This document shows, piece by piece, positions 4,079-59,945 of a stretch of 59,945 bases of DNA. Source of the DNA: Girardia tigrina (Eukaryota); NCBI GenBank assembly GCA_001938485.1, contig MQRK01245740.1, positions 1 through 59,945 on the forward strand, written 5' to 3'. The notes under the pieces were generated by a model. That model searched no databases. It was not told where the DNA came from and saw only the letters and a list, made by a program, of their open reading frames with translations. How positions within the stretch are numbered: the stretch's first letter is position 1; the number at the start of each line of letters is the position of its first letter. A program made the translations under genes and the position numbers.

Positions 4079-7000
4079 AAAATTTTTGATCTTCTCCACA
4101 TTTCGTACTATTTGTTTTTTATTTTCGTCCTCTAATCGATAACTTCTGTCGNNNNNNNNNNNNNNNNNNNNNNNNNNNNNNNNNTATTTGTCATCCGCTT
4201 TAGTCCTTATCTCCTTCTTCACCCATACTTTGTCTCCGATATTAAATGAGCGGCGTGTAGTTGTTTCCGTATATTCCTTTTTCTCCCATGACGGTGAATT
4301 ATTGTTGCTATATCATTTTTGTCTGTCAATCTTCCTTCCGAAAATTATCTTCGCCGGGCTTTTCCCCAATGTTTTCTGTCTTGTCGCGTTCAATGTAAAT
4401 TCCACCTCAGGTAACATGTCTACCCAACTCGTTTCGTTCCTTTCTTTGAGGCTCGCTTGAATATATTCCCTGATTGTACGGAATTGTCNNNNNNNNNNNN
4501 NNNNNNNNNNNNNNNNNNNNNNNNNNNNNNNNNNNNNNNNNNNNNNNNNNNNNNNNNNNNNNNNNNNNNNNNNNNNNNNNNNNNNNNNNNNNNNNNNNNN
4601 NNNNNNNNNNNNNNNNNNNNNNNNNNNNNNNNNNNNNNNNNNNNNNNNNNNNNNNNNNNNNNNNNNNNNNNNNNNNNNNNNNNNNNNNNNNNNNNNNNNN
4701 NNNNNNNNNNNNNNNNNNNNNNNNNNNNNNNNNNNNNNNNNNNNNNNNNNNNNNNNNNNNNNNNNNNNNNNNNNNNNNNNNNNNNNNNNNNNNNNNNNNN
4801 NNNNNNNNNNNNNNNNNNNNNNNNNNNNNNNNNNNNNNNNNNNNNNNNNNNNNNNNNNNNNNNNNNNNNNNNNNNNNNNNNNNNNNNNNNNNNNNNNNNN
4901 NNNNNNNNNNNNNNNNNNNNNNNNNNNNNNNNNNNNNNNNNNNNNNNNNNNNNNNNNNNNNNNNNNNNNNNNNNNNNNNNNNCTTGTCTTCGGTTTTTCT
5001 ACTTTTGCATCCTCATGTGTCATTTGACACTGTGCACAAGTTTCACATGTACTCCTCGATAACATGTCAGCATTTCCATGTAGTTTCCCTTTCCGGTAAA
5101 CAAGTTCTATATCTAGACTGCTCAGGTAATTTATCCACGTTTGGAACTGTGGGGTGATAGGTTTTTTCGTATTTACCATGAATGTGATGGCTTTATGATC
5201 CGTCCTTAATTTAAACCTTTTCCCATAGAGGTAATGATTAAAATGTTGGCAGAAATAATATACTGCCAATAACTCCTTCCTCGTGATACAATACCCTTTT
5301 TCATGGTCCCCCATGGAATGCGATCCATATGCTATTACTTGTTCTTTTCCCGTATCTCCCACTTGTGACAAGACTGCCCCGATACTGTCAAAGCTAGCAT
5401 CCGTGTCTAAAATGAATGGTTTCCGAAAATCAGGGAATTTTAGCACTGGTGTTGACATGAGTGCTTGTTTCAACTCATTGAAAGCTTGTTCACAGCCGTC
5501 TGTCCATATCAACTTATCCTTCTTCGCCCCGCATAATCCTTCCAGTATCTTGGCTTTCCTAGAATACCCGGAGATGAATTTCCTATAATAATTGCATATT
5601 CCTAAGAAACTCCTCAGCCTCTTCATACAATTTGGTCTCTGAAATTCATCGATAGCTTTTATTTTGTCTGGATCTGTGCTTATGCCATCTTTATTTACCA
5701 CATGTCCTAAAAACTTAACCTCTTCCCTCAAGAATTTGCATTTCGCCGGTTTTATTTTCAAACCTGCCTCTTTAATTTGTTGACAAACTCTGGTTAATAT
5801 GTCATAGTGTTCTTCCTCTGTCTTTGTGGCTATCAAGATATCATCTAGGTAGACGGAAGTTCCCTTATCAATCGGTGCCAGTACTTTCGTCATCAGCTCT
5901 TGAAATGTACCTGGTGCCGCAGCAATCCCAAACGGCATTCTTAGGAAGCAAAACTGACCGTTTTTCGTCGAAAAAGCTGTCTTATCCTGTTATTCCTTCT
6001 CCAACTCCACTTGATAATAAGCGTTCCCTAGGTCAATTATGCTGAAATATCGAGTTCTATGTAGTCTATCTATCAGCTCGTCCATATTGGGCATTGGAAA
6101 GGCTTGTCTCTCTGACACTTGGTTTAGTTGTCTAAAATCCATACAGATCCTGATCTAATCTGTATCTTTCTTCCATACGTACACAAGTGGCGTGTTCCAA
6201 GGTGAATTACAACGGCGAATAATTCCGTTTTCCTCTAAGTTCTTGATAGCCTCCTCTAATTTCCCTTGAAGATGTTCCGGTTGTCTCCGTGGTTTTATAT
6301 TTACTGGTTTGCACGTAGTTTTTATTTCATGCTTTATCAAACTGGTTTTACCTATGTCCCACTCGTTGGTCATGAATATATCCTTAAACTTCACCACTAA
6401 GCCTTCTTGTTTCTGTTTCCCAGATAAATCTAGATGTTTTCTCACCTCCTTTAATCGTTCTTCATCTGTAACTTTGCCTCCAAACTTAGCTTCCAGTTCA
6501 TACACGTGGTGTATCCTCTTGAATTCTTCTTTCTCTGTGTTTGATAACCACCTCAACCCTATCCCAAAACTCTGTTGCAACGGCACGCCTCCGATCATAT
6601 AGGGTTTTAAATTTTCCACTGCCACGAACTTAACTTTCCTTATACATTTACCTACTTTACATTCGACATCTACTTCTCCTACAACATTCATTGCTGACCC
6701 GTTTGCTGCCGTCAATTTCTGAGTAGTCCTATAGATTGTTGCTGACTTTAAAAGCCTTGCCCTCTCAGCTGCTATAACATTCATCGCCGCCTCCGTGTCC
6801 AACAAACATTCCAAACCTATTCCTTCTACTTCCACCGTTATGCTTGGTCTCCCTTGGAGTTTATTATACGAAATATCTTCGTGTACATCATATATTGACA
6901 TCATCTCTGGTGGTCCCCTATTACTCTCTTCTCCCAAGCATTTCATCCATCTGGCCGTCGTTTCAGCTAACCCTTCATATTCATAAATATTATTTCTCTT

Positions 7001-7124
7001 CTTTTTACTATTTGTCAACTCTCCTTTATCCTCGTCTATCTCATCTCCCCAAAATACATCTTCCTGAGTCTCTGTTCTCCTCCTGTTACAATTCGAAACT
7101 ACAATACCTTTACTCGACAATCTA
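4064..7124 (-). pseudogene. pol: Gypsy Pol (protease, RT, RNase H, integrase)
   Basis: Protease LLDTEAAMNVI; RT SPWNTP, MPFGIAAAPGTFQ, YLDD; RNase H LDTDAS..KELLAV..TDHKA..NADMLSR; integrase C-terminus SWVDMLPEVEF..SPAKIIFGR and FNIGDKVWVK. The integrase core lies in an N gap. In-frame stops at 6155, about 5990 and 4313. Confidence 0.93.
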
Positions 7125-8141
7125 CTGTTAAGTTTTATTTTATTATCATTATTATTATTATTAATCGAAAAAAATTACTACTTTTATAATTAATACTTTT
7201 ATAATTACTACTTTTATGATTACTAATATTATAATTATCACACATTATTTACATAAACCGGTTTAACATTAATAAAACTTACGCCATCGCCAAGATCGGT
7301 TCCTCTGCGACTTGGCGACTCTCGTTTTTTCTTTCGTACTCTCGATCTCTTTCTTCCTCANNNNNNNNNNNNNNNNNNNNNNNNNNNNNNNNNNNNNNNN
7401 NNNNNNNNNNTTAACTTTCCTTATACATTTACCTACTTTACATTCGACATCTACTTCTCCTACAACATTCATTGCTGACCCGTTTGCTGCCGTCAATTTC
7501 TGAGTAGTCCTATAGATTGTTGCTGACTTTAAAAGCCTTGCCCTCTCAGCTGCTATAACATTCATCGCCGCCTCCGTGTCCAACAAACATTCCAAACCTA
7601 TTCCTTCTACTTCCACCGTTATGCTTGGTCTCCCTTGGAGTTTATTATACGAAATATCTTCGTGTACATCATATATTGACATCATCTCTGGTGGTCCCCT
7701 ATTACTCTCTTCTCCCAAGCATTTCATCCATCTGGCCGTCGTTTCAGCTAACCCTTCATATTCATAAATATTATTTCTCTTCTTTTTACTATTTNNNNNN
7801 NNNNNNNNNNNNNNNNNNNNNNNNNNNNNNNNNNNNNNNNNNNNNNNNNNNNNNNNNNNNNNNNNNNNNNNNNNNNAAACTACAATACCTTTACTCGACA
7901 ATCTACTGTTAAGTTTTATTTTATTATCATTATTATTATTATTAATCGAAAAAAATTACTACTTTTATAATTAATACTTTTATAATTACTACTTTTATGA
8001 TTACTAATATTATAATTATCACACATTATTTACATAAACCGGTTTAACATTAATAAAACTTACGCCATCGCCAAGATCGGTTCCTCTGCGACTTGGCGAC
8101 TCTCGTTTTTTCTTTCGTACTCTCGATCTCTTTCTTCCTCA
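6630..8141. repeat. ~730 bp direct duplication (offset 781) around a 50-N gap; probable assembly overlap
   Basis: 6630-7360 matches 7411-8141 wherever bases are called; the copies are separated exactly by the N gap 7361-7410. Confidence 0.8.
7906..8063 (-). other. Putative spliceosomal intron between gag and pol (duplicate copy at 7125-7282)
   Basis: Minus strand ATG GC|GTAAGT...AAAACTTAACAG|T AGA TTG TCG AGT. 158 nt and very AT-rich relative to its flanks. Removal deletes the gag TAA and gives an in-frame LAMARLSSKGIVV fusion. Confidence 0.75.
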
Positions 8142-9192
8142 GCTGCCAATTGTCGGCCTCTCACAATCCCTGGGTAATAATCTTCCGATTCCCGGATCGA
8201 TCTCACATCCTCATCCGCTCAGTCCATTATTGCTACATGTCTCTTGTTAGTCTTTCCCCTGATGGAGTCACTCGAAGATTGGTTCGTTTTTCCACTCAGA
8301 TTCCCCAGTCTCGAATTTCTGTTCGAGTTGATCCACCATCTCGGTCTCTCCCCATCTCGTTCTAGGCTTCCACCCCTTGTCGTATCAAAATAGGTCTCGT
8401 GTCTCACTTTTGAAAAACAATCGTCCGCGTAGTGACCTGTTTTGTCACATCTTGTGCATCTGATCCGGCATTCCCGTCGTATATGACCTTTCCGGCCACA
8501 TCCGAAGCAGGTAACATCTCTCTGTTTCTGACATTGCATGCTGATATGACCCACTTCATGGCAGTTCCAGCAGGTCCGTTGTTCACCATATGTCAGTTTC
8601 TCCGAAAACTTTTTATCCTTTGGTTGGTGGTTCCATTTTGTAATATTGGCATATGATGCTTTCACCGCGTTGATCTGTTTCCGATCCGATTTGACTTCGT
8701 CCATTTTTTTAATGATTTGTTGAATGTCTTCTTTGCCTTTGATATCCCTCATCATAATCTCTTTCCGAGTCTCCTCGTCATTGTTGCAATTTAATAATAA
8801 ACATTTCTCGATTTCCTCGATAGTCCACTGAAAGGACATGATTTTCTCCGCCATTTTTCTGGTTTTCGCGAAAAACTCCGTCGTACTCTCTGTTGTCCTT
8901 TTGAATTCCACCGCTTCTCTTAGGACTTCAATTTGTGACTTCTTCACCTGGAGCGCTTCCCGTAGTCTGTTTTCGAAACCTTTTTCGGCAGGTCTCGTAT
9001 TTTCATACACTGCAATCAAATCTCGTGATAGTAGTGTCACTACCAGAGTTTCTTTCAGACTATCTGGGACTCCTGCTGCCTTGAAATATCGATTACAGTT
9101 CGAGATAAAAATTTCCAAATCATCATCTTTCTTCAAGTGTTCCGGAATCAGCCGCGAAATCAAGTGGTCCGAATTCGTGGCGAAGGCCGCCA
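8060..9192 (-). pseudogene. gag: Gypsy Gag with three CCHC knuckles
   Basis: Starts MAAFATNSDHL at the LTR junction. Knuckles CWNCHEVGHISMQC, CFGCGRKGHIRREC, CTRCDKTGHYADDC. Premature TGA at 8219, after which the frame stays open to TAA at 8060-8062. Confidence 0.88.
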
Positions 9193-9576
9193 TGTTAGAA
9201 TTTGTGAGAACACCACTCGGAGAACAAATATCCATCACTAAATTATATTTATTAATCACACTTAATTATTGGATATTGAAAAATTGATTGATGGCGTTGA
9301 TCTTCTGATAATTCCAATTTCCACTCTGATTTTCAAATCCCCCGAAAATTCTGCCAATTATTAAAACAATTTGTTTTTTTTTTATTTAATTTACATTTAA
9401 CTTATATTTAATAAATTTATTTAATTATTTCTTAAAAAAAATTGAGGAACTAAATTACTAAAGATTTATTTTTTTTTGTTAAACCGGTATTTTATAAAAT
9501 TATATTTAATTAACTAATTTAACTTAATTTCGATTGTCTATTTCAAAAATTTTCCGTTTACTATTAATTCCTAACA
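9193..9576 (-). repeat. 5' LTR of the gypsy element, followed by PBS-like TGGCGGCCTTCGCCA
   Basis: Direct repeat of 3684-4063; TGG directly follows the CA end on the minus strand. Confidence 0.95.
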
Positions 9577-10864: not shown

Positions 10865-11163
10865 TATATACTACTAAAATATAGACAAAATTAATAACGT
10901 CATGAAAAGTATAAAAAGATTATATAAGTAATCGAAATTTTTTCTTCTTAAGCTGAGTGTAATTCACATCCAAATTTAATTTTCAATATTATTATCAAAA
11001 ATACTTAATGGAGTGATAAGGGAAAATAATTTTATTGCGAAAACCTTTTCGATAGTGTATCTAATACAAGTTATGTAATATCGTTTACAAATATATGACC
11101 GATGGTCAAAAGGAATAAAATATTGTGAACCCGAGAAAGAACTTTGAGCTCTCTCTTTAGTTG
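10865..11163. repeat. Partial copy of the USP-flanking cassette
   Basis: Closely matches 28803-29100 and shares its left boundary tatactactaaaatatagac. Confidence 0.85.
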
Positions 11164-11581
11164 TGTTGGGTATTCGAAAATATTTTTGTTAATCAAGCTT
11201 TCAAATATAATTGTCTGACTCCTTTTCAAATGGTTCTTCCAACGTTGTAATGAATATATTAATTCGATTAACCCTCTCTTGAGGTTTCAATTCAAATGAA
11301 TCTCGTCGGAAATTAGTTTTCAAATATTATTAATAGTAATAAGTCAAAGGAATTCTGTTTAAAAACTTTATTCAATTGAATCACAAAATTCTTCCGAATA
11401 GTACAACGTATAAATAACTATGGAGGATTCCAAAATATTTTGTATATCTTCTCCTATTAAAAATTTCGTTTATTATTTTTTTGCGTTAAAATTCTTCATG
11501 TTTTGGGATATTTATACCCGTTTTGATTATAAAAAAACTAAATATTTTAATAAAAAATAGTTAAATTTAAATTATAAAATA

Positions 11582-26599: not shown

Positions 26600-27110
26600 T
26601 TTGTAATTAATTTCGGCGGATTACCCGCCATCTTCAGACTAAATTAAAACTGACTTTTTGCAGCTTATATATGAGAAAGGTGATTATGCCATCAACATGT
26701 AATATAGGCTTTATTTGAAAATGTTTAACGGAGAAGTTGAGTGTGAAGCTTGAATATTAATTTTTGGATCCATGGACCTTATTAATAAGGACCTCACACG
26801 TTACTCTCTCTCAGTAATTTTTAAATCGATTACACAGAATTTGAAAATCATTTTCTCCGATTTTCTTTTTACATTTTAAATTATGTTCAGCAATATTGCT
26901 CCCGTTATCCAACCTACTATGCTCTTTGATCCATTTGCATAGATGATGAGATGTCTCTCCAATGTATGTGGAGTTACACCCATTACATGTATATTTATAA
27001 ACAAGATCGGAACACAAACCGAGAAGAGTGGAAGATGTGTTACTGAACATATCACGAATTTTATATGATTGGGAAGAACTTGCTCCATTCCTAAGAACTT
27101 GTGTGATTCT
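26600..27110 (-). mobile_element. Penelope-like element 3' remnant (GIY-YIG endonuclease)
   Basis: LVYKYTCNGCNSTYIGETSHHL..IKEH..SNIAEH..C..FQIL, followed downstream by a minimal hammerhead. Confidence 0.85.
26601..26645 (-). ncRNA. Minimal type I hammerhead ribozyme (PLE-associated)
   Basis: Minus strand agt CTGAAGA tggcgg-gtaat-ccgcc GAA ATTAAT T aca: CUGANGA core, stem II, GAAA, palindromic stem III, AUU triplet. Confidence 0.75.
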
Positions 27111-28399: not shown

Positions 28400-28912
28400 T
28401 TCGGCTAATGTAGTAATTATTATTCACAAAATAAAAAAAAGTTAGAGTGAAATCAAATAAATGAAAATGTAATTATAAAAATAATATCAGAATTTAAAAA
28501 AAATGAAAACAGAATTAATTTTGTTTAAATAATATAAAAAAATCAAAAGTGAAAGAGCACAATTTAACTAGTAAATAACAAAATTAAAATTTTTATATCC
28601 ATTCTTTATGCAGACAAAAATCTACTTTGCCGACAAAGTTTTTAAAATTTAAGATTTAAAAAGTTTTAATTTAAAAATCCCATTAAAAATTAATATAAAC
28701 TTGTAGTTTAGTAGTTTACTCGTAGTTATACGATATTTATTTATAAACTATTTATAAACTAAACTACTAAAACGATTTAGTAGTTTTTAGTAGTTTACTC
28801 GTATATACTACTAAAATATAGACAAAATTGATAACGTCATGAAAAGTATAAAAAGATTAAATAAGTAATCGAAATTTGTTCTTCTTAAGCTGAGTGTAAT
28901 TCACATCCAAAT

Positions 28913-29233
28913 TTAATTTTCAATATTTTTATCAAAAATACTTAATGGAGTGATAAGTGAAAATAATTTTATTGCGAAAACCTTTTCGACAGTGTATCTA
29001 ATACAAGTTATGTAATATTGTTTACAAAAATATGACCGATGGTCAAAAGGAATAAAATATTGTGAACCCGAGAAAGAACTTTGAGCTCTCTCTTTAGTTG
29101 TCAATAGTTCCATATCAGCAGGAAAAATATGATTCGATATTTGTACCCTTGTGTATTGTTCCCATAATGTATATTGAACATTACAAAACCACAAATTCGT
29201 AAAAAACAAGCACAATAAAAAAGTTAAATACAT
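28913..29233 (-). CDS. Hypothetical protein with a signal-peptide-like start, divergent from the USP gene; possibly a pseudogene
   Basis: MYLTFLLCLFFTNLWFC start lies 101 bp head-to-head with the USP ATG. A diverged homolog sits at about 46158-46320 plus 49265-49450. Confidence 0.35.
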   Translation of the reverse strand: MYLTFLLCLFFTNLWFCNVQYTLWEQYTRVQISNHIFPADMELLTTKERAQSSFSGSQYFIPFDHRSYFCKQYYITCIRYTVEKVFAIKLFSLITPLSIFDKNIEN

Positions 29234-29334
29234 TTATTGTCCAATCAAATTTGAAATAATTATTTTCATTAATTCCCACTTTACCATTTTAAGAATAGTT
29301 AACATTATCTATCGTGTTTTGATTTAAAGCGAAA

Positions 29335-30564
29335 ATGGTTCGAAGAAATATGACATTTAAAACTGCTACTTTGAGAAATGATAACAACTTTATTAAACGA
29401 CAAACTTCAACGATTACAAAACCTCAGATAGTTCCTCTGATAAATGATAATACGGATTGGTACATGGACAGTGTCATTCAAGAAATGATGATCAAATCTT
29501 TTAAAGAACAGGTTTCGATTACTAATAGAACTTCGTCAAGTAAAATAGTAAATAATAATAATAATGATTGGTACATGGACGAATCGATTCAAACTCTGTT
29601 GATGAATTCCGTTCAAGAAAACATTTCGATCATTAAAGCAAGCAAGCCTATTCCGCTCACTAATAATAATAATAATTGTTATATGAATAGTGCGATTCAA
29701 GCAATGTTAATTCCGTTTCTAGATTTATCAGATTATCTGAAATCACAACTGACTAGTAAAAAGATAATCNNNNNNNNNNNNNNNNNNNNNNNNNNNNNNN
29801 NNNNNNNNNNNNNNNNNNNNNNNNNNNNNNNNNNNNNNNNNNNNNNNNNNNNNNNNTTTCTTAAAGAAAATTGTGAATTGAAATATTTTGGAAGTGAATT
29901 AACTTGGAACAAACAAGAAGACGCACAAGAATTTCTTAACAATTTTCTCAATAAACTTGAAGAAGAAGTAAAACCGATTATTGGAAACGAAGCTTTACCA
30001 TTTCAAATTAATCGTGATGTAAGATTGTTTTGTGACAATTGTCAACATACAAAAGCATCTCAACCGAATATCGTCAATGAAAATATGCTATTCATANNNN
30101 NNNNNNNNNNNNNNNNNNNNNNNNNNNNNNNNNNNNNNNNNNNNNNNNNNNNNNNNNNNNNNNNNNNNNNNAAATGTCCGAGTTGTAATTCGATAAATGG
30201 GAGAGGCAGAAATTGCGAAATATTTTCAAATAGTCCTAAATATTTGATCGTGTGTATAAAAAGATTTGTTAGAAATCCGATCTCATTAGCTATTAATAAG
30301 CTTAATGAAGAAATGAAAATAGACGACAAATTTGAGTTATTATATGGAAATGATGATAGTGTGAATATTTCCGGTTATGAATTGATCGGAGTTGTAAATC
30401 ATGTCGGAGGAACTATTTCACGTGGACATTATTACAGCTTTGTTAAATACAAAGATCAATGGTATAAGACCAATGATCAAAGAATAGCTACAGTGAGTTT
30501 TGAAGAAATGAAGAAAGAGGTTAAATCCTCAAATTATATAAATGTGTATAAAAAGATTTATTAG
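29335..30564 (+). CDS. Ubiquitin-specific protease (peptidase C19), compact, apparently intronless
   Basis: Cys box NNNCYMNSAIQ, QEDAQEFL, CDNC/CPSC zinc fingers, PKYLIVCIKRF, His box YELIGVVNHVG..RGHYYSFVK..WYKTND; 409 aa open across two N gaps. Confidence 0.93.
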   Translation: MVRRNMTFKTATLRNDNNFIKRQTSTITKPQIVPLINDNTDWYMDSVIQEMMIKSFKEQVSITNRTSSSKIVNNNNNDWYMDESIQTLLMNSVQENISIIKASKPIPLTNNNNNCYMNSAIQAMLIPFLDLSDYLKSQLTSKKIIXXXXXXXXXXXXXXXXXXXXXXXXXXXXXFLKENCELKYFGSELTWNKQEDAQEFLNNFLNKLEEEVKPIIGNEALPFQINRDVRLFCDNCQHTKASQPNIVNENMLFIXXXXXXXXXXXXXXXXXXXXXXXXXKCPSCNSINGRGRNCEIFSNSPKYLIVCIKRFVRNPISLAINKLNEEMKIDDKFELLYGNDDSVNISGYELIGVVNHVGGTISRGHYYSFVKYKDQWYKTNDQRIATVSFEEMKKEVKSSNYINVYKKIY

Positions 30565-31113
30565 AAATTGCCTGGTATTTTTGATGTTGTTTTGGTATTT
30601 TTAGTTTGATTCTTTAGTACTTTAAAATGATAAAGTAAATTTTTATAGCTTTAATTTGAAAAAAACGACTTAAATAATTTGAATATTACTAATGACAGTT
30701 GCTTTTATTTCATTTAATCATTTCATCTTCTCAATAATTGTTTTAATCATCTTATTGTTGCTAATAATACAATTATATTTATTGTTTATATTATTACTAT
30801 TAGTCGCACGTACATTATTTCCGATAATTTTGTATTTTAGATTAGAATTCATTTTTTCACACAAATTTTATGAATGAAAACAATGAACACATTTAAACAA
30901 ATTTCTTTTTAATTTAATCATTTCGCCAAAATCAATTTTTTTATTTTTCTTTAATATCAAATTTCTATTTCAGTAAAAATATTTATTTTTAAAACTTTAT
31001 TTTTAATTCAATTTATAATAAACTTTTAAGATTTTTAAACTATTTTTTTGTTAGGATCGTAAAATTTGGTCGACAGATTTTTTTATTTTAATTAGTTAAT
31101 TAATTGATTTGAT

Positions 31114-32469: not shown

Positions 32470-34093
32470 TTGGAGGATGTTAAAAGTCTGGAAATCGATT
32501 TCGACCATTTTGATCTGATGCTCAAATATTGTTTGAAGTTGATTGAGAAAGGATTGGCGTACGCTGATAACACAGACCCAGAGCAAATGAAACGTGAACG
32601 AGAAACGAAAACTGAATAGAAATGCCGTAATCAGAGTGTAGAAGAAAATCAAAGATTGTGGGAAGAAATGAAATCCGGTATGGACCTTGGATTGATCTAT
32701 TGCGTGAGAATCAAGATTGATATGAATTCAAATAATGGTTGCATGAGAGACCCAACGATTTATCGCTGCAAGAAAGAGCATCATATCATGACCGGAGATA
32801 AATATAAGGTCTATCCGACATATGATTTCGCGTGTCCAATTGTAGACAGTATTGAAGGAGTGACACACACTCTCCGGACGAGCGAATATAATGACAGGAA
32901 TGAACAATTTAATCAAATTCTTGATTTATTGGAGCTGAGAAAACCAATGATTTCTGATTACTCGCGATTTTCTCTACAGAATACTGCGTTATCAAAACGA
33001 AAGTTGGCGTACATTGTAAATGAAGGTCTCGTCGACGGATGGGATGATCCGAGAATTCCGACTGTTCGAGGAATTCTTCGACACGGTATGACTATTGCCG
33101 GGCTGAAGGAATTTGTGTTGGCTCAAGGATTTGGTCGTGCGAATGTGGTGATGGAATGGGATAAAATTTGGGCTTTTAATAAAAAAGTAATTGATCCAAT
33201 TGCACCTCGATATACTGGATTGGTTGGATTGGATGAGTCTCTAGTATTAGTTAGAGTAGCGGGCCAGGTATGAATTGAGAAAGGATCGGTTGCTAAACAT
33301 CCGAAGAATGAGAGTGTAGGTCAGAAATTGATTTGGTTCACTCCAACAGTACTGGTAGAAAGATCTGATGCGGTAGATTTTGTGGAGAACACAAATGTAA
33401 CATTTCTCAACTGGGGTAATATTCTCATAACAAAAATCAATCGAAATAACACCAATAACATCGTTTCCATCGATGCAAAACTCAATTTATCAGACCGAGA
33501 CTTTAAAAAGACGCAGAAAGTTACTTGGATGCCATTAGGACCTGGTGATGATTTACGATCATTCTCTATCCCAATAAACGCTATTTTCTTTGACCATATT
33601 ATCACGAAGAATGTGTTAGGAAAAAATGACGACTTCAAAGATTTCTTTTAATAAGGATTCGAAACGAGAAGAAGCTCTAATTGGAGATATTGAATTAGGA
33701 GACCTAAAGAAGGGAGATATCATTCAATTGCAACAAAGATGTTACTTTATTGTAGACGAAGAATACCGACAGAAAGGCAAAGCAACAGGCCGAGAGTATC
33801 ACCTCGTATTGATCAATATTCCCAAGGGAAATAGCAAGGAGAGACTTACTACTGGCAGTAAAGCGAATAATAAAACAAAGGCTGAAAAAGCAAATGGTGA
33901 TTCAGTAAAAAAACAAAGCGAGAAAAAGAAAGTAGTTGAAAAAAAATGGGAGAAGAATATCGAAGAAAAAGGAAATCATAAAAAGGAATCAAGGAAATGA
34001 AATAATAGAAAAACCAATTCCAAATGCAAAAAACGTTGATTCATCAATGAAAAAAGGACCAGGCTCGGTTTGGAAGTAAAGAAAGAAGACAAC
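32470..34093 (+). pseudogene. EPRS: Bifunctional glutamyl-prolyl-tRNA synthetase fragment
   Basis: [53 protein letters not shown] and KGDIIQLQ, then a K-rich linker and the ProRS start TRLGLEVKKEDN. Stops at 32617 and 33271; frameshift near 33645. Confidence 0.92.
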
Positions 34094-44988: not shown

Positions 44989-46054
44989 CTAATAAATCTT
45001 TTTATACACATTTATATAATTTGATGATTTAACCTCTTTCTTCATTTCTTCAAAACTCACTGTAGTTATTCTTTGATCGTTGGTCTTATACCATTGATCT
45101 TTGTATTTAACAAAGCTGTAATAATGTCCACGTGAAATAGTTCCTCCGACATGATTTACAACTCCGATCAACTCATAACCGGAAATATTCACATTATCAT
45201 CATTTCCATATAATAACTCAAATTTGTCGTCTATTTTCATTTCTTCATTAAGCTTATTAATAGCTAATGAGATCGGATTTCTAACAAATCTTTTTATACA
45301 CACGATCAAATATTTAGGACTATTTGAAAATATTTCGCAATTTCTGCCTCTCCCATTTATCGAATTACAACTCGGACATTTNNNNNNNNNNNNNNNNNNN
45401 NNNNNNNNNNNNNNNNNNNNNNNNNNNNNNNNNNNNNNNNNNNNNNNNNNNNNNNNNNNNNNNNNNNNNNNNNNNNNNNNNNNNNNNNNNNNNNNNNNNN
45501 NNNNNNNNNNNNNNNNNNNNNNNNNNNNNNNNNNNNNNNNNNNNNNNNNNNNNNNNNNNNNNNNNNNNNNNNNNNNNNNNNNNNNNNNNNNNNNNNNNNN
45601 NNNNNNNNNNNNNNNNNNNNNNNNNNNNNNNNNNNNNNNNNNNNNNNNNNNNNNNNNNNNNNNNNNNNNNNNNNNNNNNNNNNNNNNNNNNNNNNNNNNN
45701 NNNNNNNNNNNNNNNNNNNNNNNNNNNNNNNNNNGGAATAGGCTTGCTTGCTTTAATAATCGAAGTGTTTTCTTGAACGGAATTCATCAACAGAGTTTGA
45801 ATCGATTCGTCCATGTACCAATCATTATTATTATTATTTACTATTTTACTTGATGAAGTTCTATTAGTAATCGAAACCTGTTCTTTAAAAGACTTGATCA
45901 TCATTTCTTGAATGACACTGTCCATATACCAATCCGTATTATCATTTATCAGAGGAACTATCTGAGGTTTTGTAATCGTTGAAGTTTGTCGTTTAATAAA
46001 GTTGTTATCATTTCTCAAAGTAGCAGTTTTAAATGTCATATTTCTTCGAACCAT
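44989..46054 (-). CDS. USP deubiquitinase, copy 2 (middle lies in an N gap)
   Basis: N- and C-terminal parts are nearly identical to 29335-30564; no stops in the called bases. Confidence 0.85.
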
Positions 46055-50839: not shown

Positions 50840-53800
50840 TTAAGTGACTAAAACCTTGACCATAATCAAAATATATTGAATTTCATTATCTTTTCCAGTG
50901 AAATCAATCTCCAAAGTTTCTTGAATCATTCGATTAAAAAATGTCGGAACCGATTCTGCTACTCTCATGACCTCTTCATTTCCGTTTAATGCAATTAAAA
51001 CGAACTGAATTTTCAATCCCAAACTTCCGGTTGGTACTTCTGGTGCCCGAAACTAAAATTAAAGTCATCTAGAAATAGAATTAACATATTCAAACCGTCA
51101 CAATTAGTTTCTCTGCCATTTTCCTATATGTTAACTTCCAGTCGAACAGGTCAATACTGAAGTAAGGGGTTCTGATGGCTTTTTTATCAATTGCGTTTGA
51201 AAAACGATTGGAGATTTTATTGTTGAATCTGTCGATGACCAAGTTGAGATAGTTTCTTGGTTTATACCATTCTTCACAGAACGCTTCATTAATTGAAGCG
51301 TTGAACATACATAATGAACGATACCTATGATAGATTAATACGCTTTACAAATGGTTTTATGTGTTGTTAATGATATATTTTATAACACATTCTCATCAAT
51401 TACGAATTGATCTTTTTAAAATCATTTTATTAAACAATTATCAAAAGAAATTTTCTCATATTTTATTATTTTTTTATTATTTGATTGCTGTATAAAGTAA
51501 ATATTTGTTATACAAATCAAAAATAATATAATATTAATGAAATTTGATGATAAAATAAATTTGTTTCAATTACAAATATAATTATATTTTACGTTTTCTT
51601 GTATTTTATTAAATATAATTTCAATTCTTCATAAATAATTTATTATGATTATGATAAGATAAAGATTAAGACCGGGGAATTGATTTTTTTTCGTGGGGTT
51701 TGTTTCCTGCGAGTTGAAATGTTTGCTAACATATTACCATTATTTTAAAAAACATAATATTCAAATTTATAATGCAAAGTCCGAAGTAAGAATGCATAAA
51801 AAGGGTCTCCCCTGGTATTTATAATTAATTGTGGTGTCCAAGCCGTTAGGCATACAGAAGGTAAAACTTGATAATACATCTATAAACTGTGTTTGGTGGT
51901 ATATTGTGGAAATCGAAAATAAACCTTTAAATGGTTATCATACCTAATAAAAAAACCTTTAACATTTCGATTAAATTTTGTATTAACCATTAAACTTTGT
52001 GTTCAAGAATATGTATGAAATGAAGAAAAAATACCTATGTAGTACGTTCAATAAGTATCAGGTCTAAGGTAAAAAAGGTGATAGCACATTGTATTTAAAT
52101 AAATTAATAAAGATTTAAATTTTAATAAATGTTTAAGAGGTTTTGATTAGATTTTTGCCATCTTTTTTTTAATTGTTTTTGAAATTATTACGACATTTGT
52201 AATTTGCTTCAATGTGATGATTTCAGAAGTCGTACATCACATCGTTATCAAGTTCTTTGTGTTGCAGAATAAGACGTGTTGTGAAATCATCAACTTTTTA
52301 CATTCAACTTATCTAAATGACTTCCTATCTCTGACAACTGTTAAATATTTGATTAGAGAGTTTAAAGATGGTCGCACAGTTGATTAAAAATAGAAGAAGG
52401 TGTTCCAAAAAGAGCGTTAAATTACCATGAAAAGGCTGTCAATGAAGTTCACCATCAGTGTTGGTATAGTTCACACCAAATTTAAATCCATAAGTCTCAA
52501 AAAACTGGCCTCCAGATTCGTACCCGCTTCTTGACCGATGAAATGATGCAAAACCGCTGGGATTGCAGTCAGAACAACTTGGACCTGTGGGACCAGCATA
52601 GTGAGACTCCCCTGGAAAATTTAATTACAAGGCATAAAGTTTATTTTCATGGAGAAACTATTCAAAGAGAAACTACTCAACATGTATTAACCGGAAACAA
52701 AATATGAGTCAGCAGAATGGAAAATGCCCGTAGAGAAGCCACATTTGAAGATGCAAACGGGACAAGTGTCGGACGGGCGATGATAATTTTCATTTTCTGA
52801 GATCATAAATATGTAATTCTTATGGATTTCGTGGATAAAAGCAGAATATACTAACTGCAGATAACTACAGCCAACTTGTGGAAACTGTAAGAAAAAAAAA
52901 CGGAAGCAGTAGAACCAGCTACTATAGTTTCTCCATGAAAATGTGCAAGTACACACTAAGGACATTTCTCTGACTAAAATTGAAGGTACTGGACTTTTTT
53001 GTGGATCATCCGCCGTACAGCTAAGTTTTGGCATCGATCAATTTTTACCACATCAGACATCTAAAGAAGCATTTGAGAGGTATCCAGTTTGGATCCAAAG
53101 ACGATTTGAAGGTTGCCATGTATGATTTCATCGCTGCATGCACATCAAAAGTTTTCAAAAAGGCGTTTTCTGAGTTTATTATCCACTTACGGAAGTGTAT
53201 GGAGCGAAATGGACATTATATTAAAAAATGATTCATACATACATTAAGCTTGTTATTTTATATAGATGGCCGTTTTGGAATTCATTGTCTTTGTCAGGCC
53301 GGGTACTTATTGAACACACCATATGATAATATGGCAATTTAATCAATCATTTTAAATATTATGATTAAAATATAAAGAATAATTATAACTGTTGTACGTC
53401 TGATATTTGTTTTGAGTTCTAAGTTTGACATATTTTGTAAAATGTTCATAATTGAAATACGCACTCTCCCTTATGATCGATATTAGCAAATTATCTATGA
53501 TAATTAATTTAATTAAATAACTATTTATTTGTTATTAAAAAGAGTTTATTTGAATATTAATTATTATAACGATTTTGAAAAGTAGAGTCAAAATGAAGTG
53601 ATTTCTGCAAAAATAAAATGTTGATTCGTGTAAAAATATTTTTCTAATTTATTTTATAAAGGAAACCAAGAAGTTATTTTATTTGAAACTCCAAGTAACT
53701 CTTCGTTTTTTTATATAAATACAACTTACTTATGAGCCTTCATAATAAGTCTTTTTAGAAGTTTGTTTATTTTTGGATTTTCTGAAAAATCATTTCTTGT

Positions 53801-54628
53801 CTCTATTTCAAAAAGATGTGTTGGAGTCATCATGGAAAATCGTATTAATGGCAACAGCTTCATAGCGTTTAATTCTAATTCAACAATATGATCATCGCTG
53901 TAAAGCCATGTTTTACTGAGATCATAAATATTATATTCGCAATTCACAACTAAAGTTGATGATTCAAGAATTTCACACAGAAAACTTATATCTAAAGAGT
54001 TCCATACTTCAGACATTTGAATGAGGTTTTGGAAATTCGAACAAATCGTTTCCCAGCAATTTTTAACAATATCAACACAATTTAACATCTTAACCCAAGA
54101 ATACCATTTTAAGGAGTTCATTAAATGTGGACTTTGGGAGTTTTTATACATATATTCCAGTGCTAGGAACCTCAGAGACTCAACGTTATATTTATCCGCC
54201 AAACAAAGTAGCCCGACCACTCTATCACTGGTAAAGGTCACTTCTCCCGTATACATAAATTTTAAAAAATACATAAAAGATTTTTCACATTCCGAGTTTT
54301 CTTCAAGAACTATAACGTTTGAGTCTTCTTTTTTATCTTTATTTTTTGTTCTCCACTTTTTATCAAACATTTTTGATAGAACATCACTGGAAGCTGATAG
54401 AATAAATTTGTGAGCATAATATTTCGTTTCGCCGACTTGTAATTGAACATCACTAAAACATTATAAAACATATTTTTCAATTAGTTTCTAATACCTTAAA
54501 GATTCATTTTGAAATAACATAGATATTTTTTTTATTAAACCTTTTTCATCTGACAAAGTTTCTTCATAGTTCTATTCAAAGGGATTTATTTCAATTAGTA
54601 AATCATATTTACTCACATTTTCTATCAT
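50840..54628 (-). CDS. BTB/POZ-BACK domain protein (BTBD17-like), spliced host gene
   Basis: Exons 54628-54617, 54571-54495, 54452-53730, 51324-51096 and 51052-50840 join in frame through GT-AG introns of 45, 42, 2405 and 43 nt. SDVQLQVG..AHKFILSASSDVL..FLKFMYTG..LADKYNV; BACK region ..LLPLIRFSMM..AHKYRSL..YKPRNY. An extra short final intron near 50816-50854 is possible. Confidence 0.85.
52036..53326 (+). mobile_element. Decayed mariner (Tc1/mariner) element inside the BTB gene intron
   Basis: Imperfect ~28 bp TIRs (gttcaataagta / tacttattgaac), ~1.29 kb. Remnants VIKFF..EI..FKDGRT, SRFVP, LHENVQVH, HPPYS, LKKHLRG. Confidence 0.85.
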
Positions 54629-55554: not shown

Positions 55555-56390
55555 TACGACAATATAATTCGACGGATCTACCGTCATCTTCAGGTCACTA
55601 ATTAATAATCAATTCACCTGTATATAAATACAAAAATGATGATTATGTAATCGATTGCATGAAATCATGCTAATCAAAAATTCTCAATAAGCTGGTTGAG
55701 ACTGCCGATTGAACATTGATTTTAGGACAACGTGACCTTATTAACAATGCTTCACACGACACTCTCTCCCAATAATTATCAAAATGCTTACACAGAATTT
55801 TGAAATTATCAATATTACATCACATTTACATTTTTCCTATGTTCTGCAATGTTACTCTTACTCTCTTTTCCACCATGTTCTTGAATTTGTTTATAGAGAT
55901 AACGGGCAGTCTCTCCAATGTATGTGACATCGCATGCATTATATTTATATTCATAAACAATATCAGAACAAAGTGTTAAAGATGTAATAGATTTATTACT
56001 GAACATATTTTGAATTTTATGTGATCACGATATAATTTTCAATTTAATTCATTGTTAGTTGCTTTTAACAATATATTTTAAAAGTTTTTGAATCCTTCAG
56101 AATAAGGAACAATTAAGCAAAATTTAGGCATATTATTAATATCTAATGATACTTTGATTTCTTTCTTAGATCAATCAGTACAAGCCAAACTCTGATTATT
56201 CAAACAATCCTTCAAAATTATTTTATCCACTGTTTCCTTTAATAATTTTTCTAGAAAAGATTTAGAATAACCATAACATACATTATTAACACTTTCTACA
56301 TATTTAACAAAAGTGGAAGACAACGACCAGGGGCGATAAATTAAGCTTGTGAGGAATATTTTTTTAATTTGGTATGTTGAATTTTGTATG
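55555..56390 (-). mobile_element. Second Penelope-like remnant (RT C-terminus and GIY-YIG)
   Basis: LTSLIYRPWSLSS..GYSKSFLE; IVYEYKYNACDVTYIGETARYL..IQEH..SNIAEH; homologous to 26600-27110. Confidence 0.8.
55558..55597 (-). ncRNA. Minimal hammerhead ribozyme with a core mutation
   Basis: Minus strand tgac CTGAAGA tgacgg-tagat-ccgtc GAAT tata TT gtcg; stems I and II intact, GAAA changed to GAAT. Confidence 0.65.
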
Positions 56391-59735: not shown

Positions 59736-59945
59736 ATGGTTCGAAGAAATATGACATTTAAAACTGCTACTTTGAGAAATNATAACAACTTTATTAAACG
59801 ACAAACTTCAACGATTACAAAACCTCAGATAGTTCCTCTGATAAATGATAATACGGATTGGTACATGGACAGTGTCATTCAAGAAATGATGATCAAGTCT
59901 TTTAAAGAACAGGTTTCGATTACTAATAGAACTTCGTCAAGTAAA
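59736..59945 (+). CDS. USP deubiquitinase, copy 3 (5' part, runs off window)
   Basis: Near-identical to 29335-29544, with the shared ~100 bp upstream region. Confidence 0.85.
   Translation, partial: MVRRNMTFKTATLRNXNNFIKRQTSTITKPQIVPLINDNTDWYMDSVIQEMMIKSFKEQVSITNRTSSSK

Follow-up and report, generated by a model that had tools for sequence, protein, structure and literature searches.

The window analysed here, a stretch of 59,945 nucleotides from the planarian Girardia tigrina (contig MQRK01245740.1 of assembly GCA_001938485.1), is AT-rich, repeat-rich eukaryotic DNA with a GC content of 0.18–0.38, 14 runs of N and fragments of LTR and other reverse-transcriptase elements. It contains an intronless gene for a ubiquitin-specific protease (USP, peptidase C19) of 409 codons, including two N runs, together with a second copy and the beginning of a third. 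The features are as follows (window positions; residues of copy 1).

29335–30564, + strand: USP open reading frame, gene copy 1 (PF00443 match; near-identical to the protein P0001)
29380–29430, + strand: linker before pseudo-Cys-box 1, residues 16–32, weakly like the later linkers
29431–29493, + strand: pseudo-Cys-box 1, residues 33–53, with W42 at 29458–29460 (TGG)
29494–29541, + strand: linker between pseudo-boxes 1 and 2, residues 54–69, within an 83-nt two-copy repeat
29542–29604, + strand: pseudo-Cys-box 2, residues 70–90, with W79 at 29569–29571 (TGG) and an (AAT)5 loop
29605–29649, + strand: linker leading from pseudo-box 2 to the catalytic box, residues 91–105, like the linker of P0012
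29650–29712, + strand: catalytic Cys box, residues 106–126 (N110, C115 and Q122 are invariant alignment columns)
29914–29934, + strand: QEDAQEF box, residues 194–200 (from alignments)
30424–30477, + strand: His box, G364, H365 and Y366 to N380 and D381 (from sequence and alignments)
44989–46054, − strand: USP gene copy 2 (tblastn 98–99%; both pseudo-boxes intact)
59736–59945, + strand: start of USP gene copy 3, 70 codons that include pseudo-box 1 (tblastn 98.6%; cut by the window end)

The gene encodes a USP with its catalytic residues intact

Residues 108–405 of copy 1 match PF00443 (UCH) with an E-value of 4.4e-29 (102 bits against a cut-off of 23.9), and a Foldseek search with the AlphaFold2 model of P0001 returned USP domains as top hits (E ~1e-18, TM-score by query ~0.6). 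The catalytic Cys box aligns with that of USP15; its N110 (the oxyanion Asn), the nucleophile C115 (TGT at 29677–29679) and Q122 are invariant across the alignments of the compact USP family described below, as are two CxxC pairs, C233/C236 and C281/C284. H365 is encoded at 30427–30429, with W376, N380 and D381 further along the His box. Gly, usual at position −3 of the USP Cys box, is Asn in this protein. Canonical USPs (USP2, USP15, USP12/46, USP30, USP35 and yeast Ubp8) have the same fold and motifs, but only about 20% identity to the window protein (phmmer E ~1e-10 against USP15 and USP2).

By every sequence and fold test run, copy 1 is a USP. Membership of the pseudo-deubiquitinase class (the USP39/USP50/PAN2 type, with the triad missing) was ruled out, all catalytic residues being present, and judging from these residues the product would be an active deubiquitinase. 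An in-frame stop lies five codons 5' of the first ATG, and the P0001 sequence begins with residue 6, which is the second Met. RNA matching the gene consists of a 177-nt contig of depth 3 from a single RNA library, a kind of record from which tissue and level are not readable.

Inactive copies of the Cys box in the N-terminal extension

An earlier note on this DNA had described three related units at the N-terminus, VPLINDNTD-W-YMDSVIQEMM, KIVNNNNND-W-YMDESIQTLL and IPLTNNNNN-C-YMNSAIQAML, and these are present as quoted, in a single open frame. Only the third carries the nucleophile, as the note had said: the codons at this position are TGG (W42), TGG (W79) and TGT (C115), 37 and 36 codons (111 and 108 nt) apart, and Asp replaces the following Asn in the first two. 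Two additions can be made to that description. The repeat unit comprises a non-catalytic linker of about 16 residues as well as the Cys loop and the first turns of the helix, and the dead units share a third change, Asn to Asp before the Trp. The complete set of changes common to both dead units relative to the catalytic one is N to D at −1, C to W, and N to D at +3 (in pseudo-box 1, Asp flanks W42 at −1 and +3), and all three run towards G/C in a gene with a GC3 of 0.26.

At the DNA level, a repeat search returned a three-copy family of 51 nt with spacings of 111 and 108 and 71–75% identity to the middle copy, and the two dead units also form the 83-nt two-copy repeat at 71% identity. Tandem Repeats Finder reported two (AAT)5 runs and not the long repeat, which is thus below its threshold. 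For all three pairs of units, none of 20,000 composition-preserving shuffles reached the protein similarity score; with Asn runs collapsed, 1, 2 and 6 of 20,000 did so, with residues from the W/C onward only, 0, 3 and 46 of 20,000, and with codon-shuffled DNA, 0, 0 and 1 of 3,000. Furthermore, a catalytic-box profile built from 10 other family members and searched against 15 N-terminal extensions picked up both pseudo-boxes (E 1.1e-6 and 7.4e-4). The similarity thus survives correction for composition, and the internal duplication with loss of the nucleophile that the note had proposed is supported by the shuffles, the DNA repeats and the family profile alike.

The dead units are about 65% alike and have an identical 15-nt core, encoding DWYMD, the remainder differing at 35% of bases. 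Given this core and the shared triple change, the simplest history would be a duplication, the loss of the nucleophile and then a second duplication.

Two further short repeats were seen in the gene. Close to the start codon, a 16-nt repeat (88%) at 29369–29384 and 29435–29450, with a spacing of 66 nt, may be a trace of a fourth and shorter Cys-loop copy. Another direct repeat, of 26 nt (96%), at 30251–30276 and 30543–30568, also found in copy 2, spans the stop codon with its second copy, and the C-terminus may also come from internal duplication.

Gene copies, their surroundings and selection on the tail

The DNA common to copies 1 and 2 extends beyond the gene by about 270 nt on its upstream side and about 60 nt on its downstream side. 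That copy 2 keeps both pseudo-boxes and copy 3 shows the first before the window ends, as previously noted, was borne out by tblastn; the middle of copy 2, catalytic Cys box included, is unreadable (N). Some 15 kb separates one copy from the next; their orientation alternates, their flanks are unrelated, and they sit amid transposon debris. Terminal inverted repeats, poly(A) and target duplications were sought around copies 1 and 2, and none was seen. Immediately upstream of copy 1 is one member of a 300-nt repeat (97%; 28802–29101 and 10865–11164), with whose final ~34 bases the stretch common to copies 1 and 2 begins; it may mark how the USP cassette was moved. Mammalian USP17/DUB3 arrays consist of intronless, multicopy, near-identical USP genes placed head to tail. 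The window gene is likewise intronless, multicopy and near-identical between copies; a tandem array of the USP17/RS447 type was rejected, the copies being dispersed in both orientations with unrelated flanks.

Among the other elements of the window, 258–2742 (− strand) encodes a gag that contains three CCHC knuckles and, after it, a weak match to Monjiviricetes fusion proteins that stays below the cut-off (E 4e-4), the whole being broken into several open reading frames. Gag followed by an env-like frame is the layout given for planarian Burro LTR elements in the portion of PMC6431247 consulted; the fragment fits it and, like the Schmidtea relative described below, is in keeping with a planarian host. 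A Ty3/gypsy-like gag-protease-RT-RNase H fragment lies at 4313–9259 (− strand); its protease segment is locally duplicated in 100% identical blocks beside N runs, which may be an echo of the assembly. Fragments of a glutamyl/glutaminyl-tRNA synthetase at 32656–34000 (+ strand), without introns and frameshifted, are likely a pseudogene, and a BTB-BACK open reading frame of 214 codons occupies 53726–54370 (− strand). The frame at 26811–27088 (− strand), without a Pfam hit, has a 70% similar copy at about 55695–56025 and by eye resembles what we take to be the GIY-YIG endonuclease end of Penelope-like elements.

Upstream of the gene, 26 of 265 aligned bases differ between copies 1 and 2; within the coding sequence, the N-terminal part has 5 differences in 320 bases and the C-terminal part 5 in 393. 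Residues 1–106 carry four synonymous differences and one non-synonymous (pN/pS 0.064, Fisher p=0.007) and residues 280–409 three and two (pN/pS 0.17, p=0.057), all substitution counts being small. With the addition of two non-synonymous variants from sequencing-run contigs, one of which rests on a single contig of depth 4, the value for the tail is 0.19 (p=0.034). No amino-acid variant among those seen falls in either DWYMD core. P0001, a JGI protein from an independent source, differs from copy 1 at 3 of 100 residues in 6–105 and at 6 of 250 readable residues thereafter. The synonymous excess shows that the region is translated, and over the short time between gene copies the tail is about as conserved as the catalytic domain. 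The earlier note had counted an untranslated region, or one unconstrained across copies, as evidence against its proposal, and neither is what we found.

Divergence between the dead units, by contrast, looks relaxed. Across one whole period, pS and pN between units 1 and 2 are both 0.368 (ratio 1.0), with ratios of 1.19 in the 13-codon core and 0.74–1.07 in the linkers. Pseudo-box 1 compared with the catalytic box gives pN 0.20 and pS 0.87, the latter near saturation on only about five synonymous sites. The suggestion that the copies are a neutral remnant is, taken strictly, too strong for a tail that is now under purifying selection.

One contig of sequencing run X1 spans 29332–29769 with four differences and the same unit arrangement. 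Repeat-number variants were absent from the three window copies, P0001 and four sequencing runs, whose contigs drop rare forms. A separate 830-nt contig of run X1 (record 8) matches 29395–29523, that is pseudo-box 1 and linkers, at 83% (22 differences in 129 nt); the nine differences listed are mostly G to A, turning the Trp codon into a stop and Asp codons into Asn, and this contig is probably a decayed paralog.

These data bear on the trivial explanation, namely that the pattern is a chance similarity in Asn- and AT-rich sequence, an assembly duplication or a feature of untranslated DNA. The draft has many N runs, the units include (AAT)5 runs, and the RNA amounts to the single shallow contig mentioned above. 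Against this, the similarity remains significant after the collapse of Asn runs, the units are too dissimilar to be an assembly echo, the same arrangement is found in the independent JGI protein and in the X1 contig, and the synonymous excess speaks for translation. An artefact is therefore nearly excluded.

A family of compact, planarian-type USPs

A phmmer search of 1.84 billion representative sequences with the window protein returned nine proteins of 348–426 residues (36–100% identity, E <1e-41), the query itself among them, followed by generic USPs. Both this drop in similarity and the trees set the compact USPs well apart from other USPs as a clade. Thomomys USP17-like proteins were among the matches, with only generic similarity of 25–26%. 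A profile search of a word-indexed database returned four family members, all already known, and none of 81 pattern matches in metagenome contigs was confirmed as a related locus. The single confirmation among 78 pattern matches in viral contigs was a generic USP at 23%, so a viral origin is without support. A search for shorter proteins carrying the N-terminal region gave no candidate. Extensions are present in 13 of 13 aligned family members and are mostly unalignable with one another.

One relative, P0016 (UZP64864.1; 38% identity, E 1e-53), is annotated as ubiquitin specific protease 8 of Schmidtea mediterranea, and its first residues match the ubp8 clone OL957302 (supplement of PMC8994625; codons read by eye). 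According to the sections of that source consulted, Schmidtea ubp8 is expressed in larger oocytes (PMC8994625). Six of the eight 'UBP' rows among those listed in its ovary-enriched sheet show >100-fold ovary enrichment (PMC8994625), and these transcripts may include members of the compact USP family. Like the window gene, Schmidtea ubp8 encodes a compact USP of about 400 residues with an N-terminal extension of about 110, and it falls in the same half of the family tree (support 100/100). It differs in having no pseudo-box in the extension (1526 of 3,000 shuffles reach the score), and orthology to the window gene is not implied. Its name comes from a best hit, and the protein has neither the length nor the extra domains of human USP8. 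By analogy with ubp8, copy 1 of the Girardia gene may be expressed in oocytes; the family comprises planarian-type compact USPs including this oocyte marker, and is apparently an expanded germline deubiquitinase family.

Occurrence of pseudo-boxes in other USPs

We scored the upstream region of each protein against its own Cys box, taking at most 10 of 2,000 shuffles as a pass; of 163 proteins, 66 did not enter the comparison, as 28 lacked the box pattern, 8 contained several boxes and 30 had fewer than 40 upstream residues. Five of 15 family members passed (P0001, P0012, P0002, P0007 and P0008), as against 1 of 82 other USPs, and in that one, P0053, the match is a 6-residue repeat of the pre-box strand with no copy of the helix. 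The pseudo-box was absent from the other 10 family members surveyed. Given that extensions occur throughout the aligned family, such a tail is the family norm, and mimicry of the box is not required for it.

The five passing members represent two lineages, P0002, P0007 and P0008 being near-identical and close to P0012. In this second lineage, known from Logan (ENA) and only 43–50% identical in sequence, each protein has one partial copy of the Cys box (0–3 of 2,000 shuffles) followed by a similar linker, compared with two copies in the window gene. DWYMD is lacking; depending on the register, the nucleophile position holds R/K or a Cys behind a 7-residue insert, and the box is either broken by that insert or without the YM..IQ face. 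The linker behind the P0012 pseudo-box resembles the last linker of P0001 (14 of 20,000 shuffles, for hand-picked segments), and the linker before pseudo-box 1 resembles the stretch before the P0002 pseudo-box (113 of 20,000). Whole N-termini compared with that of P0001 gave 42 of 2,000 shuffles for P0012 and 899 of 2,000 for P0002. In a catalytic-domain tree of 12 rows, near-identical sequences having been left out, P0014, with a short extension and no pseudo-box, adjoins the P0012 group (93/96); the placement of P0001 is unresolved, and a clade of pseudo-box carriers is neither recovered nor rejected (p-AU 0.057). The pseudo-boxes of the two lineages may share ancestry or have arisen by independent duplication, both being compatible with the tree. 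In the other half of the family, residues 30–40 of P0018, about 100 residues upstream of the catalytic Cys, weakly match the helix half of the Cys box (E 0.011 among 15).

This comparison also touches on a possible role at the DNA level, in which the repeats would serve as gene-conversion donors or as substrates of unequal crossing-over, remodelling the catalytic loop and the repeat number in a fast-evolving multicopy germline gene. In P0012, the pseudo-loop and the catalytic loop agree in 8 residues out of 9, and P0002 shares with the more distant P0016 a catalytic loop different from that of P0012. The pseudo-boxes of P0002 and P0008 score 54 and 58 against the catalytic box of P0012 and 39 and 42 against their own, a conversion pattern read from protein alone, and the window protein, without the family Gly at −3, has an Asn run like that of its pseudo-loops. 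However, P0018 and P0019 also lack this Gly and have no detectable pseudo-box, and the repeat number was constant wherever we could read it. We consider such a role very unlikely.

Predicted structure and possible roles of the dead copies

In the AlphaFold2 models, residues 1–95 of P0001 and 1–105 of P0012 have pLDDT below 50, which is weak evidence, as the alignments were shallow (7 and 15 rows) and the N-termini poorly aligned; in the catalytic domain of P0001, 10-residue blocks are mostly at 70–93, the lowest at 56. Helices are drawn over the pseudo-boxes at low confidence. Among solved chains, none matches the extension, the best stretches beginning at residue 105 or later. On the strength of these models, the extension would be intrinsically disordered and outside the catalytic fold.

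The earlier note had suggested, alongside decoys and a neutral remnant, that the pseudo-boxes could swap into the fold and inhibit the enzyme. Taken furthest, the idea would be that planarian oocyte deubiquitinases placed copies of the active-site loop and helix in the N-terminal tail, in one ancient event or in two independent ones, and retained these dead copies as a mimic in cis that caps, displaces or competes for the seat of the Cys box, holding the maternal enzyme off until activation by ubiquitin, a partner or cleavage; the copies might also rewrite the catalytic loop by gene conversion. The residues kept in the pseudo-boxes (P-L, N at −5, Y-M and I-Q) are those conserved by the family in the real box, the family is where pseudo-boxes are concentrated, and pseudo-box 1 has a low pN relative to the catalytic box. 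On the other hand, neither model places the extension with confidence, the ratio of 1.0 between the dead units tells against conservation of a mimic, and the second-lineage box is broken or faceless. In USPs the catalytic helix lies inside the thumb and runs on into the following helices, so exchanging it would be costly and need partial unfolding. A complex prediction for P0001 residues 96–402 with residues 18–92 scored 0.00 in two runs, which is evidence neither way, as it was made without an alignment or folded controls. Swapping into the fold thus found no support here, and we regard both the mimic and its fuller version as improbable. Elements that are dead or block catalysis are known in deubiquitinases (the inhibitory tip of USP25, the WW-like domain of USP8, and USP39, USP50 and PAN2) and resemble the window gene in concept; they differ in being unrelated elements or a whole dead domain, and in none, to our knowledge, is the Cys box of the enzyme itself repeated as a short unit. 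Our literature search, from whose coverage subscription papers were mostly missing, yielded no paper on such a repeat.

A second possibility is that the dead boxes were co-opted as paired binding helices (D-W-Y-M-D-x-x-I-Q; acidic and amphipathic) that become folded on binding a partner and bring the enzyme to a substrate or to a compartment of the oocyte, independently of the catalytic fold. Both boxes have a hydrophobic moment of 0.32 and a net charge of −2, both are drawn as helices in the low-confidence model, and the DWYMD core and the I/Q positions are kept in units that otherwise differ at 35% of bases, in a tail under purifying selection. The core is, however, identical at synonymous positions too, so that a recent duplication or conversion suffices without selection; the core ratio between units exceeds 1, and the second lineage has R/K in place of W and no DWYMD. 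An Atlas feature search gave no usable match for residues 18–100 and was uninformative by its own account. We hold this reading to be conceivable but doubtful.

A probable history of the tail

The explanation we favour, with some reserve, is an active USP of the oocyte type with a disordered tail that was enlarged by tandem microduplication and with dead boxes that have no role tied to their origin. The gene would code for an active compact USP of the planarian family, switched on in growing oocytes in Schmidtea. The extension of about 100 residues would have arisen through small tandem duplications of a ~110-nt segment that covers the linker, the Cys loop and the opening turns of the catalytic helix; in one of the copies the nucleophile would have been replaced (Cys to Trp, alongside two Asn-to-Asp changes) before this copy was itself duplicated. 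The repeats, the shared changes, the intact catalytic residues, the family and the present-day constraint are observed, whereas the order of events, the disorder, the enzyme activity and oocyte expression in this species are deduced. The dead units would then have drifted apart under little sequence-specific constraint and would now make up a disordered tail that contains short, acidic, amphipathic helices and keeps clear of the catalytic fold, with catalysis due to C115/H365/N380 only. The ratio of 1.0 between the dead units appears to speak against a sequence-specific role. Four points seem to weigh the other way: the purifying selection acting on the tail now, the closeness of pseudo-box 1 to the catalytic box in protein despite near-saturated synonymous sites, the persistence of a pseudo-box in so divergent a lineage, and the direction of the three shared changes in a GC3-poor gene. 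Altogether, the dead copies are real, but they look more like leftovers of duplication than a built-in brake.

If the copies did regulate the enzyme, self-mimicry of a catalytic helix would be a mode of deubiquitinase control without a paper in the literature searched. As it stands, the gene offers a clear case of a disordered tail assembled from parts of the catalytic core of the same enzyme, by steps that can still be read; it belongs to a flatworm family of germline deubiquitinases that has been little studied and is apparently expanded.
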